Sequence record: SRR20825019_2783
DNA: 64,000 bases
Reading direction: 5' to 3' (one strand)
Shown: positions 9,497 through 16,253 of the stretch, piece after piece
Layout of the letters: the number at the start of each line of letters is the position of its first letter
Numbering within the stretch: the stretch's first letter is position 1
The notes under the pieces: generated by a model
What the model saw: the letters and a program-made list of their open reading frames with translations, nothing else
What the model was told of the DNA's origin: nothing
Databases searched by the model: none
Position numbers and translations under genes: made by a program

Positions 9497-11221
9497 TCAG
9501 TTCAGTGAGGGCAGGTTTTGATAAAGCAGCGTCAGCAGTAATCCCAGCGACACACACTGCCAGAATAACACCGGGTTTCGATCCATTAATGGTGGCCGGG
9601 CCTTGTTGAGAAAGGCCTTATTGGGGTGGTTCAGGTCATAAATAAACTCGGCCACTTCCTGATAACGCTTGTGCGGCTGGATATGGACGGCTTTTCGTAT
9701 GGTGTCATCGACCCAGAAAGGGATAGGTCGCTCCCCCTGAATCAGGGATTGATAACTGAGTTTTCTCTGCGCGGCGGTGCTGAAGGCTTTAGAGACCCCG
9801 GCCCCGTAAGGCAAGTCGGCCGACAACAGGTGATAGGTCAGCACGCCCAGAGAAAAAATATCGGACTGCGGTGTGCCGGTCTGGCCCAGAAAGTATTCCG
9901 GTGCTGTGAACTGGGCTGTCCCCAGGATCAATTCTGTTTCTACTCCCAGTTCTACCAGTCCGGCAATGCGGGTAGCACCGAAATCGATGATTTTCACCGT
10001 CCCGGATTTGTCGATAAGAATGTTATCGGGCCTGATGTCCTGGTGAATCATTTCCTTACGGTGCATGGCCTGTAAGCCTTTGCCGATCTGTTCGACAATT
10101 CGTCGCACCTCATCCAGTGCCGGCTCCGGGTTGTCATGCATCCATTGAGTCAGCGTCTGTCCCTCGATATATTCGGTGACGCTGTAGAGTGACTGCCGTG
10201 GCCGCTGACTATCGAAGGCTTTCAGACAATGCACATTATCCAGCCGCCGTGCGATCCAGTCCTCCATCAGGAAACGTTCGATGGCCTCCGCATCCTCTTC
10301 CAGATCAGTGGACAGGGTTTTCAAGGCAACCAGAGCGTCCGAGGCGGCATCTTTGGCCAGAAACACATGGCTGCGGCTGCTGACATACAACTCGCGTAGC
10401 AACTCGTAGCCCTCAAATTGCATACCCGGTGACAGTGTGGGTGGCTGGGGTAGTTGAGTCGCTTCAGTTTGTAATCTATGGTCAGACTCGGTCGGGACCA
10501 GGTCAAGACGAATAATCTGAATGGTCAGGTTGTCGTGGCTGCCGGCTTTGAGCGCCTGGGCAACCAGGCTTTCCGATGCCTGCTGCAAGTCGTCACTGTG
10601 ATCATTGATGGTCTTTGCGATTTGTTGCGCCGGGACAAAATCATAGACGCCATCGGTTGCCAGAACAAAAATGTCACCTGACTTGACAGGCAAAGCCCGC
10701 TGTTCACATTGCAGTTGGTGCTCCAGCCCCATGGCGCGACTCAGAACCGGGCCGGTTTCAGCATCAGCCTGTAGATGATCGGTGGTCAGTTGTTGTAAAG
10801 CCGGAGTGACCAGCTTATAGATACGACTGTCACCGGCATGAAAAAGGTGCGCTTTACTGCCTTTGAAGATAATCGCACTGAGGGTGCAGATATAACCGCT
10901 ATCATTGTCATAGCGATACTGACTGTTGCGACTGCGGCCATAAAGCCAGGCATTGATCGACTGTAATACCCGCTCACCGGCAGTGCTCACCGACCAGGAC
11001 TCGGGGGGTGTGTAGTAGTCTTCAATCAAACTCGCAATCACCGTGCTGCTGGCTTCCTGACTAACTTCACTGCTGCTGATACCATCAGCAACCGCAGCAA
11101 TAATGCCACGGGTCATCTGTTCATTGCCTTCAGGCACAAATACGCCGCAGCTATCCTGATTGATGGCCTTAATTCCGGCTGAACTATACTGACCGACAGA
11201 GATGGATAGGGCGTTTGTCAT
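9497..11221 (-). CDS. Bifunctional PP2C-type phosphatase / Ser-Thr protein kinase with C-terminal membrane anchor
   Basis: NQDS, VADGIS, HAGDSR, LATDGV, DNLT PP2C motifs; VALK, HQDIRPDN, DFG, APE kinase motifs. Confidence 0.9.
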   Translation of the reverse strand: MTNALSISVGQYSSAGIKAINQDSCGVFVPEGNEQMTRGIIAAVADGISSSEVSQEASSTVIASLIEDYYTPPESWSVSTAGERVLQSINAWLYGRSRNSQYRYDNDSGYICTLSAIIFKGSKAHLFHAGDSRIYKLVTPALQQLTTDHLQADAETGPVLSRAMGLEHQLQCEQRALPVKSGDIFVLATDGVYDFVPAQQIAKTINDHSDDLQQASESLVAQALKAGSHDNLTIQIIRLDLVPTESDHRLQTEATQLPQPPTLSPGMQFEGYELLRELYVSSRSHVFLAKDAASDALVALKTLSTDLEEDAEAIERFLMEDWIARRLDNVHCLKAFDSQRPRQSLYSVTEYIEGQTLTQWMHDNPEPALDEVRRIVEQIGKGLQAMHRKEMIHQDIRPDNILIDKSGTVKIIDFGATRIAGLVELGVETELILGTAQFTAPEYFLGQTGTPQSDIFSLGVLTYHLLSADLPYGAGVSKAFSTAAQRKLSYQSLIQGERPIPFWVDDTIRKAVHIQPHKRYQEVAEFIYDLNHPNKAFLNKARPPLMDRNPVLFWQCVSLGLLLTLLYQNLPSLN

Positions 11222-11307
11222 CGATTTACTGGCTGAGACGGTTGGCTATTATCATGCAACATATATCGGGCTTTGAACATGCAGCGGCATTGTTGACAGG
11301 AAACAGG

Positions 11308-11934
11308 ATGGCATTTGAGACCTTAATGAGTTTTTTTATTGCTTCGGTGCTGCTGGCACTGGCACCGGGACCCGATAATATTTTTGTGCTGACTCACTCG
11401 GTCATTCGTGGCCGTGAAGCCGGTCTGGCTGTTGTCATGGGGCTATGCACCGGGCTGCTGGTTCATACCACTCTGGTGGCATTAGGGGTTGCCGTGATAT
11501 TCCAAACCGCTGGTTGGGCCTTTACAGTATTAAAAACGGCGGGAGCCGCCTATTTGTTGTATCTGGCCTGGCAGGCGCTGACAGCAAAGCCGGTGTCTTT
11601 GGCTGGGAGCCCGGCATCTCGACCAAGCTTTGCATGGTCTTATCGTCGGGGGATCATTATGAATCTCACTAATCCCAAGGTGTCATTATTTTTCCTCGCC
11701 TTTATGCCCCAGTTTGTTACGCCTGCATCGGTAGGCATCACACAGCAGATTATGGTGCTGGGCGGTTTGTTTATTGTGGCGACCATTATTGTTTTTGGCA
11801 GTATGGCCTTGATGGCAGCTAAGCTGTCGCATGTGTTCAGGCGATCGCCACGAGTTCAGAGCGGCCTCAACAAGCTGGCAGCACTGGTTTTTGTTGGATT
11901 GGCTATGCATTTGCTGCTGTTCGGCCAGGTTTAA
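11308..11934 (+). CDS. LysE/RhtB family amino-acid exporter
   Basis: LAPGPDN and NLTNPK motifs; hydrophobic; AGGA SD before ATG 11308. Confidence 0.9.
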   Translation: MAFETLMSFFIASVLLALAPGPDNIFVLTHSVIRGREAGLAVVMGLCTGLLVHTTLVALGVAVIFQTAGWAFTVLKTAGAAYLLYLAWQALTAKPVSLAGSPASRPSFAWSYRRGIIMNLTNPKVSLFFLAFMPQFVTPASVGITQQIMVLGGLFIVATIIVFGSMALMAAKLSHVFRRSPRVQSGLNKLAALVFVGLAMHLLLFGQV

Positions 11935-11993
11935 GCTTTGCTGAATCTGAGACTAACGCGAATTCAAGCGCTTAAAATTACAGATTGCTATTG

Positions 11994-12332
11994 ATGAAAG
12001 ATCCTCAATTTAAGGCAATAGTCTGGCAGACGATGGCGGCGATTCCACCAGGAAAAGTCGCCACCTATGGCCAGATTGCCAGTCTTTCCGGTTATCCGGG
12101 CCATGCCCGTGGTGTAGGTCATATTCTGAAAAAGCTGCCGCCAGAGACTTTATTACCCTGGCATCGGGTGATTAATGCCAAAGGCGAGATTGCCTTGCCC
12201 GCAGGCAGTGAAGGGCATCAAATGCAAAAGCAAAGACTGGAACAGGAAGGTATTCATTTTCAGGACGACAAAATCCGGCTGCGGCTTTACCAATGGGATG
12301 GGATTGTCAGCGATCACACGCCGGAAACTTGA
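11994..12332 (+). CDS. Alkyltransferase-like protein (ATL/YbaZ, MGMT family)
   Basis: IPPGKVATYGQIA; PWHRV (Trp replaces the catalytic Cys of PCHRV). Confidence 0.88.
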   Translation: MKDPQFKAIVWQTMAAIPPGKVATYGQIASLSGYPGHARGVGHILKKLPPETLLPWHRVINAKGEIALPAGSEGHQMQKQRLEQEGIHFQDDKIRLRLYQWDGIVSDHTPET

Positions 12333-12363
12333 TAACATACGCCTTTAAATATCTGGGCATCGT

Positions 12364-13251
12364 ATGCAAGGTCTTGTGCTGGCCGTTCTGGCCTATTCCA
12401 TCTGGGGTATTTTCCCGCTCTTTTTCAGCTATCTGAATCACGTTTCACCGGTAGAAGTGCTGTCGCACCGTATTATCTGGTCACTGGTGGCGACCTTGAC
12501 ACTGGGTCTGATGTTGCAACGAGGACGCTTGCTGGTTAAAGCGCTACAGGATAAAAAGACCCTGCTCTGGTTGGGCGTGTCATCATTGTTAATCGCGGTT
12601 AACTGGCTGGTGTATATCTGGGCGGTCGGTCAGCACCGGGTCCTGGAAGCGAGTCTCGGCTATTTTATTATGCCGGTGGTCAGTTTGCTGATGGGGCGAC
12701 TGATTCTGAAAGAGTCTTTGCATCCTTTGCAGGGCTGGGCCGGTGTGCTGGCAGCGATGGCAGTGTTGTGGGAATTGTGGAGCTTCGGTGCTCTGCCCTG
12801 GGTCGGTGTGGTGCTGGCCTTTGCTTTTGCCTTTTATGGCCTGGTCAGAAAAGTCCATCCGATTGACGGGCTGAATGGGCTTACTATCGAAACCCTCTGG
12901 CTGCTGCCTTTTGCATTGGGTTTTGTCGCCTGGCAGACGCTCACAGCGGATAGTCAGATGGGCTTTGGCCTGAATAATTCGACGACCTTATTACTGGTTT
13001 TCTCAGGCTTTCTGACCGCTTTGCCCCTGGTGTTGTTTGCGATGGCCACCAGCCGCATCAATCTGTCGATTGTCGGTTTTATTATGTATATCAACCCGAC
13101 CATCCAGTTTCTGATAGGCGTTTTTGTGCTCAACGAACATTTCCCGCCCGAGCGGATGCTGACCTTTATCCTGGTATGGGTAGCCCTGTTCTTGTTTGTG
13201 GCCGGACTCTGGCAGCAAATCAGACGCAGGCAGCCTCAAACCGCATCCTGA
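12364..13251 (+). CDS. rarD: EamA family transporter RarD
   Basis: HRIIWS, EASLGYFIMP, FYGLVRK, MYINPTIQF motifs. Confidence 0.9.
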   Translation: MQGLVLAVLAYSIWGIFPLFFSYLNHVSPVEVLSHRIIWSLVATLTLGLMLQRGRLLVKALQDKKTLLWLGVSSLLIAVNWLVYIWAVGQHRVLEASLGYFIMPVVSLLMGRLILKESLHPLQGWAGVLAAMAVLWELWSFGALPWVGVVLAFAFAFYGLVRKVHPIDGLNGLTIETLWLLPFALGFVAWQTLTADSQMGFGLNNSTTLLLVFSGFLTALPLVLFAMATSRINLSIVGFIMYINPTIQFLIGVFVLNEHFPPERMLTFILVWVALFLFVAGLWQQIRRRQPQTAS

Positions 13252-13255
13252 GTGT

Positions 13256-13726
13256 CTAGTTTACCGGCAACGCTGTAGAGTTTATCGGTGACTTCATGAC
13301 GAATGAGGTATGCACGCCGCTGACGCCTTCAATCCGGGTCAGTTTATTAAGCAGAAACTGTTGATAGGCATCCATATCGTGAACAATCACTTTCAGCAGG
13401 TAATCGGCATCCTGACCGGTAATCAGGTGGCATTCCAGTACTTCCGGGTAGCCGGCCAGTGTCGATTCCAGTCTCTCGAAACGTTCGGGCGTGTGCCGGT
13501 CCATACTGATGCCGATAAAGGCCATCAGGCTGAGTCCCAGTTTTTTTGCATTAAGTAGGGCGACATAGCCGTCGATCAGTCCGTCTTCCTCCATCTGCCG
13601 GACACGGCGCAGACAGGGAGAAGGCGAGAGCTTGATGGCTTCCGCCAGTTCCTGGTTGGTAATGCGCCCATTCTTTTGCAGAATATCGAGGATCATCTGA
13701 TCATAACGATCCAGTTTTTCTGACAT
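13256..13726 (-). CDS. Lrp/AsnC family transcriptional regulator
   Basis: HTH LSPSPCLRRVRQME; EVLECHLITGQDADYLLKV RAM domain. Confidence 0.93.
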   Translation of the reverse strand: MSEKLDRYDQMILDILQKNGRITNQELAEAIKLSPSPCLRRVRQMEEDGLIDGYVALLNAKKLGLSLMAFIGISMDRHTPERFERLESTLAGYPEVLECHLITGQDADYLLKVIVHDMDAYQQFLLNKLTRIEGVSGVHTSFVMKSPINSTALPVN

Positions 13727-13849
13727 GTTATATCCTTATATTTTTATAGTTAAGCATATTATTTCATTTAAGTTTAATAATAAGCAATTATGTGCTTAAA
13801 AAGTGCTTTTTAATGAAATATTGGCAATTTAATTCTACTGCAATCTCTC

Positions 13850-13855
13850 TATACT
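13850..13855 (+). promoter_or_regulatory. Putative sigma70 -10 element (TATACT) for the leuA transcript
   Basis: Near-consensus -10 in an AT-rich intergenic region, 8 nt before the structured leader; no clear -35. Confidence 0.45.
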
Positions 13856-13863
13856 ATTCTCCA

Positions 13864-14005
13864 TAGCTGAAACCGGCAGCGAAGTGAGCCACAAGCTCTC
13901 GCTGGCACGAGTGCTCCCACATCATCACAAGTGATGGTCGACACTCGTCAGCTTCCAGTTAACCCGACTGGAGAGGGTCAGACAAACGCGATGGTCTTTC
14001 AGCTA
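13864..14005 (+). ncRNA. Candidate structured cis-regulatory leader RNA of leuA
   Basis: 9-bp closing stem TAGCTGAAA/TTTCAGCTA enclosing 3-4 hairpins; see findings. Confidence 0.55.
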
Positions 14006-14035
14006 ATCGAATTAAACTGTTTTCAGGAGTCAGAG

Positions 14036-15736
14036 ATGATTACCCACCCCGCTCAGAAGTACCGCCGCTTTGAGCCTATCAAATTGACCGATCGCCAGTG
14101 GCCCAATGTGGTACTGGAAAAGCCACCTGTATGGATGAGCACCGATCTGCGTGATGGTAATCAGGCCCTGATTGACCCGATGTCGGTGGAAACCAAACTG
14201 CGCTATTTTGATGAGTTGGTCCGGATCGGTTTTAAGGAAATCGAGGTCGGTTTTCCCTCTGCTTCTGAAACGGACTTCAATGTCGTTCGCCGTCTGATTG
14301 AAGAAAACCGTATTCCTGACGATGTCACTATCGAAGTACTGACCCAGGCTCGGGAAGATTTGATTGCCCGCACTGTGGAGTCGCTGAAAGGGGCGAAGCG
14401 GGCCATTCTGCATATGTATAACCCGATTTCGCCAACTTTCCGTGAGGTCGTCTATCGTACTGACAAAGCCGGTGTTAAAGCTATTGCCGAGCAGGGCACC
14501 CGTTGGGTTAAGGAAATGACCGCCACACAACCGGAAACCGAATGGGTCTACCAGTACTCGCCGGAAGTTTTTTCCAGCACCGAAATTGAATTCGCCAAAG
14601 AAGTCTGTGATGCGGTATCAAAGATCTGGCAGCCGACACCAGCACAGAAAATGATCCTGAATCTGCCGGCGACAGTAGAGATGTCGACCCCCAACACCTA
14701 CGCCGACCAGATCGAGTGGATGCATCGTAATCTGGACATGCGAGACAGCATTATCTTGAGCGTGCATCCGCATAATGACCGCGGTACCGCGGTGGCCGCC
14801 GCTGAATTGGCGGTGATGGCCGGTGCCGATCGGGTGGAAGGTTGTCTGTTCGGTAATGGTGAGCGCACCGGTAATGTGGATCTGGTGACATTGGCACTGA
14901 ATCTCTATTCACAGGGTATTGATCCGGGACTCGATTTCACGCAAATCGATCAAATTCGTCAGATGTATGAAGAAACCACCCAGTTGCCGGTGCATCCGCG
15001 TCATCCCTATGCCGGTGAATTGGTGTTTACCGCGTTTTCCGGTTCGCATCAGGATGCGATCAAGAAAGGCTTCGCTGCTCAGACTGAGGACAGTCACTGG
15101 CAGGTACCTTATCTGCCCATTGATCCTGCCGATCTTAACCGCAGCTACGATGCCGTGGTACGGGTAAACAGCCAGTCCGGTAAAGGCGGCGTCAGCTTCC
15201 TGTTGCAGCACGCCGCCGGCTTTGAATTACCTCGCCGCCTGCAGATTGAATTCAGTCGCATTGTGCAGAAAATCAGTGATGAAACCAGCAAGGAAGTGGA
15301 TACCGCGAGTATTGTCAGTCTGTTTGAAACCTCCTATCTCCAGGTGGACTCACCTTATCGCTATATGAGCAGTCATGTGATTGATCAGGAGACCAGTGAC
15401 GTGGTAACCAGAATGGTGATGAGTCATGAACAAGAGCGAATCGAGCTGGCAGGACATGGCAATGGGCCGCTCGATGCGGCGGCCAAAGCAATCAGTGCAC
15501 ACCTGGGACAGACAGTGACGGTAGCGGATTATCATGAACATGGTATGAGCGCCGGTTCTGATGCGGCGGCAGTGAGTTATGTCGAAGTTAAAGTCGGTGA
15601 CAGACCCACGATTTTTGGTGTCGGTCAGGACAAGAACATCACTACTGCGGCTATTAAGGCCCTGATCAATGGCGTTAATCGCGCGGTGGCTGATGAATAT
15701 GAACATAATCAACAGCTTAAACAGGCGCTGAAGTAG
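14036..15736 (+). CDS. leuA: 2-isopropylmalate synthase (yeast/actinobacterial-type LeuA)
   Basis: [65 protein letters not shown] before ATG 14036. Confidence 0.95.
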
Positions 15737-15968
15737 GGCGAATCCGTTTTAAAGCCGCAAACAGGAAGCGACACCTGCTTTCAATAAGGATAATACCGAG
15801 AGCGACCTAAATTCAACTGTAAGATGTTGATAAATATGATTTTATTTTGGAATTTTGCTGGTTTGACCTGCAACCACAGATTGGTTATGGTGTAAACACA
15901 GCTGGTTAAAAAGACTTTTAATTCAGCTTTTTACTCAATGTTTGAGTAATCAAACAAAGGAGGTAACT

Positions 15969-16253
15969 ATGTTTAAGCAAGGTTTGCTTACAACACTCGT
16001 AACATTACTCTTCGCCATGTCACCAGCCATGGCCGATCATCATAAAGAAGACAATGATGGCCATAAAGGCGAAGAACATCCCGCCCACGAAATGGGTGAA
16101 GAAGTGACATCCAAAGGCTATAAAAAAGAAAAAGATGTCAGCGAAGAATACAAGGAAAACGTAGAAGAAGCCAAGGATGCTAAGGGCACTAAACACCCTG
16201 CTCATGATATGGGCGAAGGTGAAGAAATGCTCGATAAGCGCGGTGTGGAATAA
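15969..16253 (+). CDS. Small secreted His/acidic low-complexity protein with two HPAH(E/D)MGE repeats
   Basis: Strong AAGGAGGT SD, signal peptide ending PAMA, followed by an intrinsic terminator. Confidence 0.8.
   Translation: MFKQGLLTTLVTLLFAMSPAMADHHKEDNDGHKGEEHPAHEMGEEVTSKGYKKEKDVSEEYKENVEEAKDAKGTKHPAHDMGEGEEMLDKRGVE

Follow-up and report, generated by a model that had tools for sequence, protein, structure and literature searches.

A conserved hairpin leader between lrp and leuA, likely an mRNA-fused relative of the small RNA P24

The leuA gene in a 64,000-nt stretch of DNA (hereafter the window) is preceded by a folded leader that is a real, conserved RNA structure, and comparison of related loci indicates that a CAHAA/NAYCC hairpin array behind an Lrp-type promoter is present before leuA across the Pseudomonadales. 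The leader is likely an mRNA-fused homologue of the Pseudomonas small RNA P24, despite failing the Rfam threshold. We lean, by slightly better than even chances, to the reading that this P24-related leader binds a multimeric protein through its repeated loops, most likely the adjacent Lrp.

The leader and its locus

The window's leuA (14036..15736, + strand) codes for a yeast-type 2-isopropylmalate synthase (TIGR00970, 784 bits; cut-off 697). Its neighbor on the − strand (13256..13726) is an Lrp/AsnC-family regulator that matches Pfam PF01037 and an HTH, falls under the NCBIfam Lrp cut-off, and has its nearest relatives in Methylophaga. Beyond lrp, positions 11215–13251 code for a LysE/RhtB-type exporter, an alkyltransferase-like gene, and a RarD transporter, and the exporter might be part of the same amino-acid module as lrp-leuA; after leuA (15942–16253) lies a gene for a small, acidic, His-containing, secreted-looking protein with no Pfam or NCBIfam match.

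The spacer between the two genes contains a palindromic candidate Lrp box (13781..13798), proposed from its sequence, and a conserved GCAAT element (13824..13828, + strand), a candidate activator half-site that lies 21 nt before the −10 hexamer and is common to P24 promoters. The −10 hexamer itself, TATACT (13850..13855, + strand), occupies conserved columns in the 30-leader alignment and has no consensus −35; a promoter scan found no full sigma-70 promoter in the region. The position of the promoter predicts a transcript start at ~13863. No intrinsic terminator was found in the window's leader.

A sequence-only reading of the window had proposed a structured leader here, and every motif it named (TATACT, P1–P4, CACAAG, TTTCAG, the Shine-Dalgarno [SD] sequence, and the ATG) is present where it was placed. 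We assembled 78 leaders, comprising 77 of 80 loci fetched via an Lrp with a divergent leuA plus the window, and aligned 30 Methylophaga-type leaders by sequence alone; the consensus fold then gave P1–P4, placed as proposed and covarying. In these 30 leaders, 94% of cells in the consensus helices are paired, with double changes in 14 of 21 pairs (counts that include shared ancestry), and slid controls give 30–39%. The closing helix P1 (13864–72 with 13997–14005, + strand as for all these elements) is a perfect 9-bp complement, 92% paired, with double changes at two pairs. Hairpins P2 (13877..13904) and P3 (13907..13948) both covary and present CACAA pentaloops at 13890–94 and 13926–30, the two CACAAG copies beginning at 13890 and 13926. 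P4 (13953..13973) carries a second loop type, AACCC (13961–65) closed by U-G, and shows double changes in six of six pairs; P4 stems are almost wholly different between groups, with pairing retained.

The window's leader folds with z = −2.5 (4 of 200 shuffles are equally good), and P2, P3, and P4 have high pair probabilities of 0.93–1.0 in the single-sequence ensemble. P1 is a mixed case: the complement is perfect and covaries, but its probability in that ensemble is only ~0.03, because a third TCAG right after P4 competes for the 5′ strand. The case for P1 therefore rests on covariation and on a 5′-end duplex control, in which the 5′ end duplexes with the region 22–60 nt before the ATG and beats shuffled 5′ ends in 75 of the 78 leaders; across the 78, this duplex is built from many different sequences. 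A short AGAC/GTCT stem, also proposed earlier, has a pair probability of ~0 in the window ensemble and is dropped.

CAHAA hairpins of at least 4 bp number 100, in 63 of the 78 leaders, against 1.6 expected, and those of at least 3 bp number 111 on the sense strand and none on the reverse strand (3.9 expected). G-U wobbles on the sense strand and this strand asymmetry point to an RNA and not a DNA palindrome; with the covariation, they rule out the hairpins as a by-product of DNA Lrp boxes. The leader is also not a dispersed repeat: a model of P2–P4 finds a single significant copy in each of three Methylophaga genomes searched and one in the window. The same model finds no significant copy in two Cellvibrionaceae genomes, and the leader has no match among plasmids.

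Invariant loops on a variable array

The invariant bases are confined to, or border, the terminal loops, so the apical loops, whose shared CACAAG the earlier reading had pointed out, are the conserved part of the leader. Two loop types recur, C-A-x-x-A pentaloops (mostly Y-G closed) and N-A-Y-C-C loops. Among 129 leuA leaders, 103 contain a total of 180 C-A-x-x-A pentaloops (13 expected), and GGA is not among the frequent loops in a census of the same number of leaders. The hairpins differ between lineages in number (one to four) and order, and the last motif hairpin lies a median of 81 nt before the ATG, at less than 30 nt in only three of 102 cases.

For an order-level view we sampled 90 leuA loci, drawn from loci in 171 of 251 genomes of the order to which a Cellvibrio genome belongs. 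A divergent Lrp is beside leuA in 65 of the 90, and motif hairpins are found in 34 of 45 long Lrp-leuA spacers, three of 20 short ones, and three of 25 loci without an adjacent lrp; a stricter hairpin pattern gives 30, 1, and 3 in these classes, and a class-wide sample of 40 further loci shows the same split. The earlier proposal that the leader is tied to the adjacent Lrp is supported. The leader's distribution over a LeuA tree is patchy and involves many losses. In 16 regions before leuC, ilvB/I, and leuS from five genomes there are no CAHRA hairpins, and three of these regions have one second-type hairpin each. The short loop pattern by itself, searched over five genomes, proved too common for use.

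Some spacers have been altered in other ways. Three lrp-leuA spacers (L077, L059, and L080) have a long inverted repeat or extra sequence inserted, and in L077 the insertion stands in place of the motif hairpins. In L212 (884–950), the second CACAA hairpin itself looks like a terminator, its stem accompanied by a U run 37 nt upstream of leuA, and this leader is a possible intermediate between a leader and a free RNA.

The variable array bears on the suggestion that the leader is a riboswitch, which we now rate as very unlikely because hairpin number and order vary freely. The guanidine-II riboswitch provides a model for kissing hairpin loops, and by analogy the leader's loops might form kissing contacts and recognize leucine or an intermediate of the pathway; nearly identical loops on tandem hairpins, sited before a biosynthetic gene, are what such an element might look like. 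However, an array of one to four hairpins in varying order has no fixed architecture, the invariant positions are only in or at the terminal loops with no conserved junction nucleotides, there is no conserved expression platform (neither an SD mask nor a terminator), and homologues persist without a regulated downstream gene.

It had also been proposed that the 5′ strand exchanges its P1 partner for the SD, so that a ligand or protein acting on the junction would shut off translation. The alternative partner is present in the window, where a second TTTCAG (14021–26) and the SD (14024–29) occupy 14021..14029 (+ strand) ahead of the leuA ATG at 14036, and TCAG precedes the SD in most Methylophaga-type leaders. 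An SD duplex of −7 kcal/mol or better is found in 20 of 38 Methylophaga-like leaders, which is above chance, versus two of 40 others, which is at chance; in two leaders (L006 and L009) one position of the 5′ strand matches the SD better than it matches P1. Against this, double changes are missing from the 5′-strand/SD helix, and 11 of 30 sequences disrupt it at the position where P1 exchanged C-G for G-C. It is weaker than the P1-type duplex in all 78 leaders, and in the window the SD-paired state lies 3.5 kcal/mol above the P1 state and masks just two bases of the SD. The free-standing homologues described below have no downstream SD at all. With the duplex at chance level outside Methylophaga-like leaders, SD masking cannot be a family-wide mechanism; we set it aside as a general explanation, and a switch limited to that lineage, though conceivable, is unlikely.

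Control by a leader peptide fares worse still. The absence of a Leu leader peptide had been asserted, and this is correct in part: a frame from GTG 13884 to TGA 13934 has 16 codons, three of them Leu, but it is not conserved. Translation of this frame, or from GTG 13931 or ATG 13934, would offer a means of control, and both CACAAG copies read as His-Lys in the frame. Nonetheless, just 16 of the 78 leaders keep a start codon before the motif in the CACAAG frame. An upstream in-frame start with an open frame occurs in 21 of 78 and is absent from the closest relatives (L001–L006), and in 33 of 120 hairpins the CAHAA loop has A as its middle base, so that a different amino acid would be encoded. 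We regard this explanation as extremely improbable. A leaderless uORF at a first AUG is ruled out, as the window reads ATA there. The earlier view that this is not a classical leu attenuator holds, as there is neither a terminator nor a conserved Leu leader peptide.

P24 and other free-standing forms

An Rfam scan of the window region gave no match in the leader, with chance snoRNA/lncRNA matches outside it. The P24 model, RF00629, has no match to the window at E values up to 10 and none to the leuA leaders of five genomes. On the leader sense strand it matches three of 14 homologous Lrp-leuA loci at 16.8–24.7 bits (the gathering cut-off is 100), and these three weak matches owe much to the promoter part of the model. 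In RF00629, the first ~70 positions hold the GCAAT/−10 promoter motif; CAGAA- and CAAAA-looped hairpins come next, and then a terminator. Since these ~70 positions are promoter DNA, the 5′ boundary of the family (loci L243–L272) was probably drawn too far upstream.

RF00629 matches in 54 of 81 genomes of one family (Pseudomonadaceae-type), 25 of them above the cut-off. We fetched 30 P24 loci, and in all 30 the divergent Lrp is 60–64% identical to that of the window (63% in one P24-linked Lrp compared singly); leuA is present at none. The P24-linked Lrps form one clade nested among leuA-linked Lrps in a FastTree phylogeny whose deep branches are weakly supported. The GCAAT plus −10 promoter motif precedes both P24 and the leuA leaders, and P24 RNAs contain 34 C-A-x-x-A pentaloops, in 24 of 30 loci, versus 2.5 expected. 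In the 27 RF00629-negative genomes of the P24 family, Lrp is present in all, and beside lrp there are motif hairpins in 14 and a terminator in 12; several carry the window's pair of loop types, CACAA plus TACCC/TATCC. The RF00629 model misses many homologues.

The leader thus shares with P24 (RF00629; Livny et al. 2006, PMC1524904) a divergent orthologous Lrp, the GCAAT/−10 promoter, a multi-branch fold, and C-A-x-x-A pentaloops, and bridging members have CACAA and TACCC loops. P24 differs in its intrinsic terminator (30 of 30, versus three of 129 long leuA leaders), in lacking leuA, and in a CAAYCA hexaloop hairpin that is all but missing from leuA leaders (29 of 30 versus one of 129). The window's leader does not belong to RF00629 by score or by terminator, and a model of the leader, R1, has no significant match to free-standing RNAs (best E value 0.24). 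The same divergent Lrp, promoter motif, and loop class, together with other free-standing forms, are nevertheless why we consider the leuA leader likely to be an mRNA-fused P24. Because it is a positional and motif-level homologue of an RNA already in Rfam, its novelty is less than was claimed earlier. The letters of the P24 hexaloop CAATCA are the same as those of the promoter element's CAATCA (L243–L272 and Cellvibrio leaders); the repeat may be coincidental, or it may mimic the operator.

In PAO1, P24 lies at 4,444,696–4,444,952 and runs at ~300 nt on a northern blot, according to the P24 data drawn from PMC1524904; the predicted start gives ~190 nt, so the sizes disagree. PA3965, a probable transcriptional regulator, is divergent from P24 in a supplement of PMC8545117, and from its position we infer that it is the P24-linked Lrp orthologue. 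P24 is annotated neither in the Grad-seq table nor in the Hfq CLIP supplements. The longer size would fit a base-pairing RNA, whose C/A-rich loops would seed pairing with G/U-rich RNAs or act as decoys for them, or which, as a longer P24, would be antisense to the 5′ end of lrp; the stems would serve chiefly to keep the transcript stable. In its favor, the loops are exposed and rich in C and A, a ~300-nt P24 (northern, PMC1524904) would extend to the start of the neighboring gene, and P1 starts at the predicted first base. But five-base loops with a variable middle make poor seeds, and the conserved −10 implies a shorter RNA, and we consider base pairing an unlikely function.

Free-standing forms are not restricted to P24. 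In five genomes where leuA lacks an adjacent lrp, Lrp is encoded elsewhere in four. Three genomes (G408, G321, and G414) have a hairpin RNA and a terminator divergent from lrp, most clearly in G408 and more weakly in G321, and their leuA genes keep the promoter motif and show no hairpin array. G343 is a counter-case, in which the RNA remained with leuA and not with lrp. Among 32 more genomes with leuA away from lrp, 28 have no Lrp match at an E value of 1e-45; of the four with a match, G203 has P24, G320 shows no RNA, and G532 and G397 each carry a further leuA, which has lrp and a CACAA hairpin beside it. The free forms occupy three places on the Lrp tree, P24 plus two further Lrp lineages, and this distribution suggests that a free small RNA arose from the leader two or three times.

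A candidate protein partner

An array whose copy number varies, whose stems are free to change, and which survives without leuA is easier to explain as a protein-binding RNA than as an aptamer. Lrp is the leading candidate partner because lrp is the gene with which the RNA remains associated. Proteins of the Lrp/AsnC family sense amino acids, form multimers, and often regulate a divergent neighbor. In the mechanism we propose, low leucine would lead Lrp to activate the leader promoter, a transcript would begin near 13863, and two to three loops would bind the protein multivalently; in the leading version, the RNA would titrate Lrp and so damp its own promoter, providing negative feedback. The RNA would act wherever it is produced, with the SD not serving as a switch, and leuA would therefore be dispensable in cis. 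Within this protein-binding reading, we would assign Lrp about half of the weight as partner, another RNA-binding protein about a third, and LeuA the rest. A broader proposal, that an Lrp-induced RNA family, with P24 as an orphaned member, titrates its own Lrp/AsnC protein via the pentaloops and that the leuA leader became a free RNA two or three times, is one we offer tentatively, as possible but on the doubtful side.

Several observations count against Lrp. It is only slightly more conserved where the RNA is present, at a marginal p = 0.045, and no Lrp residue tracks the RNA after correction, the best being L57 (31 of 32 versus 14 of 21 clades, p = 0.004; threshold 0.0003). Lrp without the RNA is common, with short spacers at 20 of 65 Lrp-leuA loci and no motif at 13 of 27 Pseudomonadaceae-type loci, and the lrp-RNA linkage may reflect only a shared promoter. 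A supplement of PMC8545117 places the PA3965 protein in the lightest gradient fraction at its peak, which offers no hint of a large complex in that condition.

The partner could alternatively be LeuA, with the dimeric enzyme binding the hairpins through its leucine-binding regulatory domain in autogenous control and P24 serving as a decoy for LeuA in trans. The element is before leuA only, among the leucine-related genes checked, and a model of the regulatory domain (pLDDT 88) resembles dsRBD-like folds (Z 5–6, rmsd 2.4–4.2 over 58–85 residues), although a Z under 8 may be just a common arrangement. A fold computed without an alignment was poor (pLDDT 53) and was discarded. No LeuA residue tracks leader loss, the hairpins lie well away from the ribosome site, and the RNA departs from leuA and keeps with lrp at P24 loci and in three other genomes. 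We judge autogenous control by LeuA to be quite unlikely, and retain Lrp as the preferred partner.

Protein-sequestering RNAs such as CsrB and RsmZ, with repeated GGA hairpin loops, offer a precedent for the proposed protein-binding array. They too have a variable count of hairpins presenting one short loop motif on stems that are free to change; unlike them, the leuA leader has loops that are not GGA, its array sits inside an mRNA leader, and its partner is a candidate only. The thrS operator, bound by dimeric ThrRS, is comparable in having two similar hairpin loops suited to a dimeric protein; in the leuA leader, by contrast, a long stretch separates the hairpins from the ribosome site, and the RNA is able to persist where the gene is missing.

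A search of mostly open-access literature yielded no description of this leuA leader and no function for P24. In 12 of the 18 Lrp passages of PMC12152304 there is no report of Lrp bound by RNA, the main text of PMC5737381 does not contain leuA, and there was no match in one supplement file of PMC8632094, in the portions covered of the PMC5870498 supplements, or in those of the text and supplements of PMC3247240. With these comparisons P24, known since 2006, is now linked with leucine synthesis and with one particular Lrp orthologue, the loops kept by selection are named, the P24 family is widened far beyond its Rfam model, and a repeated natural case emerges of a 5′ leader turning into a free small RNA. 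If the partner is Lrp, then a transcription factor of the Lrp/AsnC family would be held by an RNA decoy.

Other RNA-level elements are known before leuA. The actinobacterial LEU element is a conserved structure for which the authors propose protein and not metabolite binding, and as described in the passages on it in PMC1262725, it has a run of Leu codons pairing with the SD and a pseudoknot, neither of which is conserved in the window-type leaders. The enterobacterial leu attenuator (leuL), in the portions of PMC2836559 and PMC2659441 that treat it, likewise lies before leuA, and by contrast the window-type leader has no conserved Leu leader peptide and no terminator. A conserved 8-mer of the Leu-Arg-Leu type is common before yeast-type leuA genes that lack an adjacent lrp (11 of 25 loci in the order-level sample) and is frequently present as a tandem pair, with examples in the 300 nt before leuA in L087, L088, L092, L093, L096, L100, L197, and L202; these 8-mers are probably short leader peptides. 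G532 and G397 (L275 and L276) have two yeast-type leuA genes, one of the lrp/CACAA type and the other with the Leu-Arg-Leu-type motif. In L168, where lrp is elsewhere in the genome, the region 100–350 nt before leuA holds an Lrp-type promoter, a hairpin array, and then a short Leu/Arg uORF, placing both kinds of leader in tandem.
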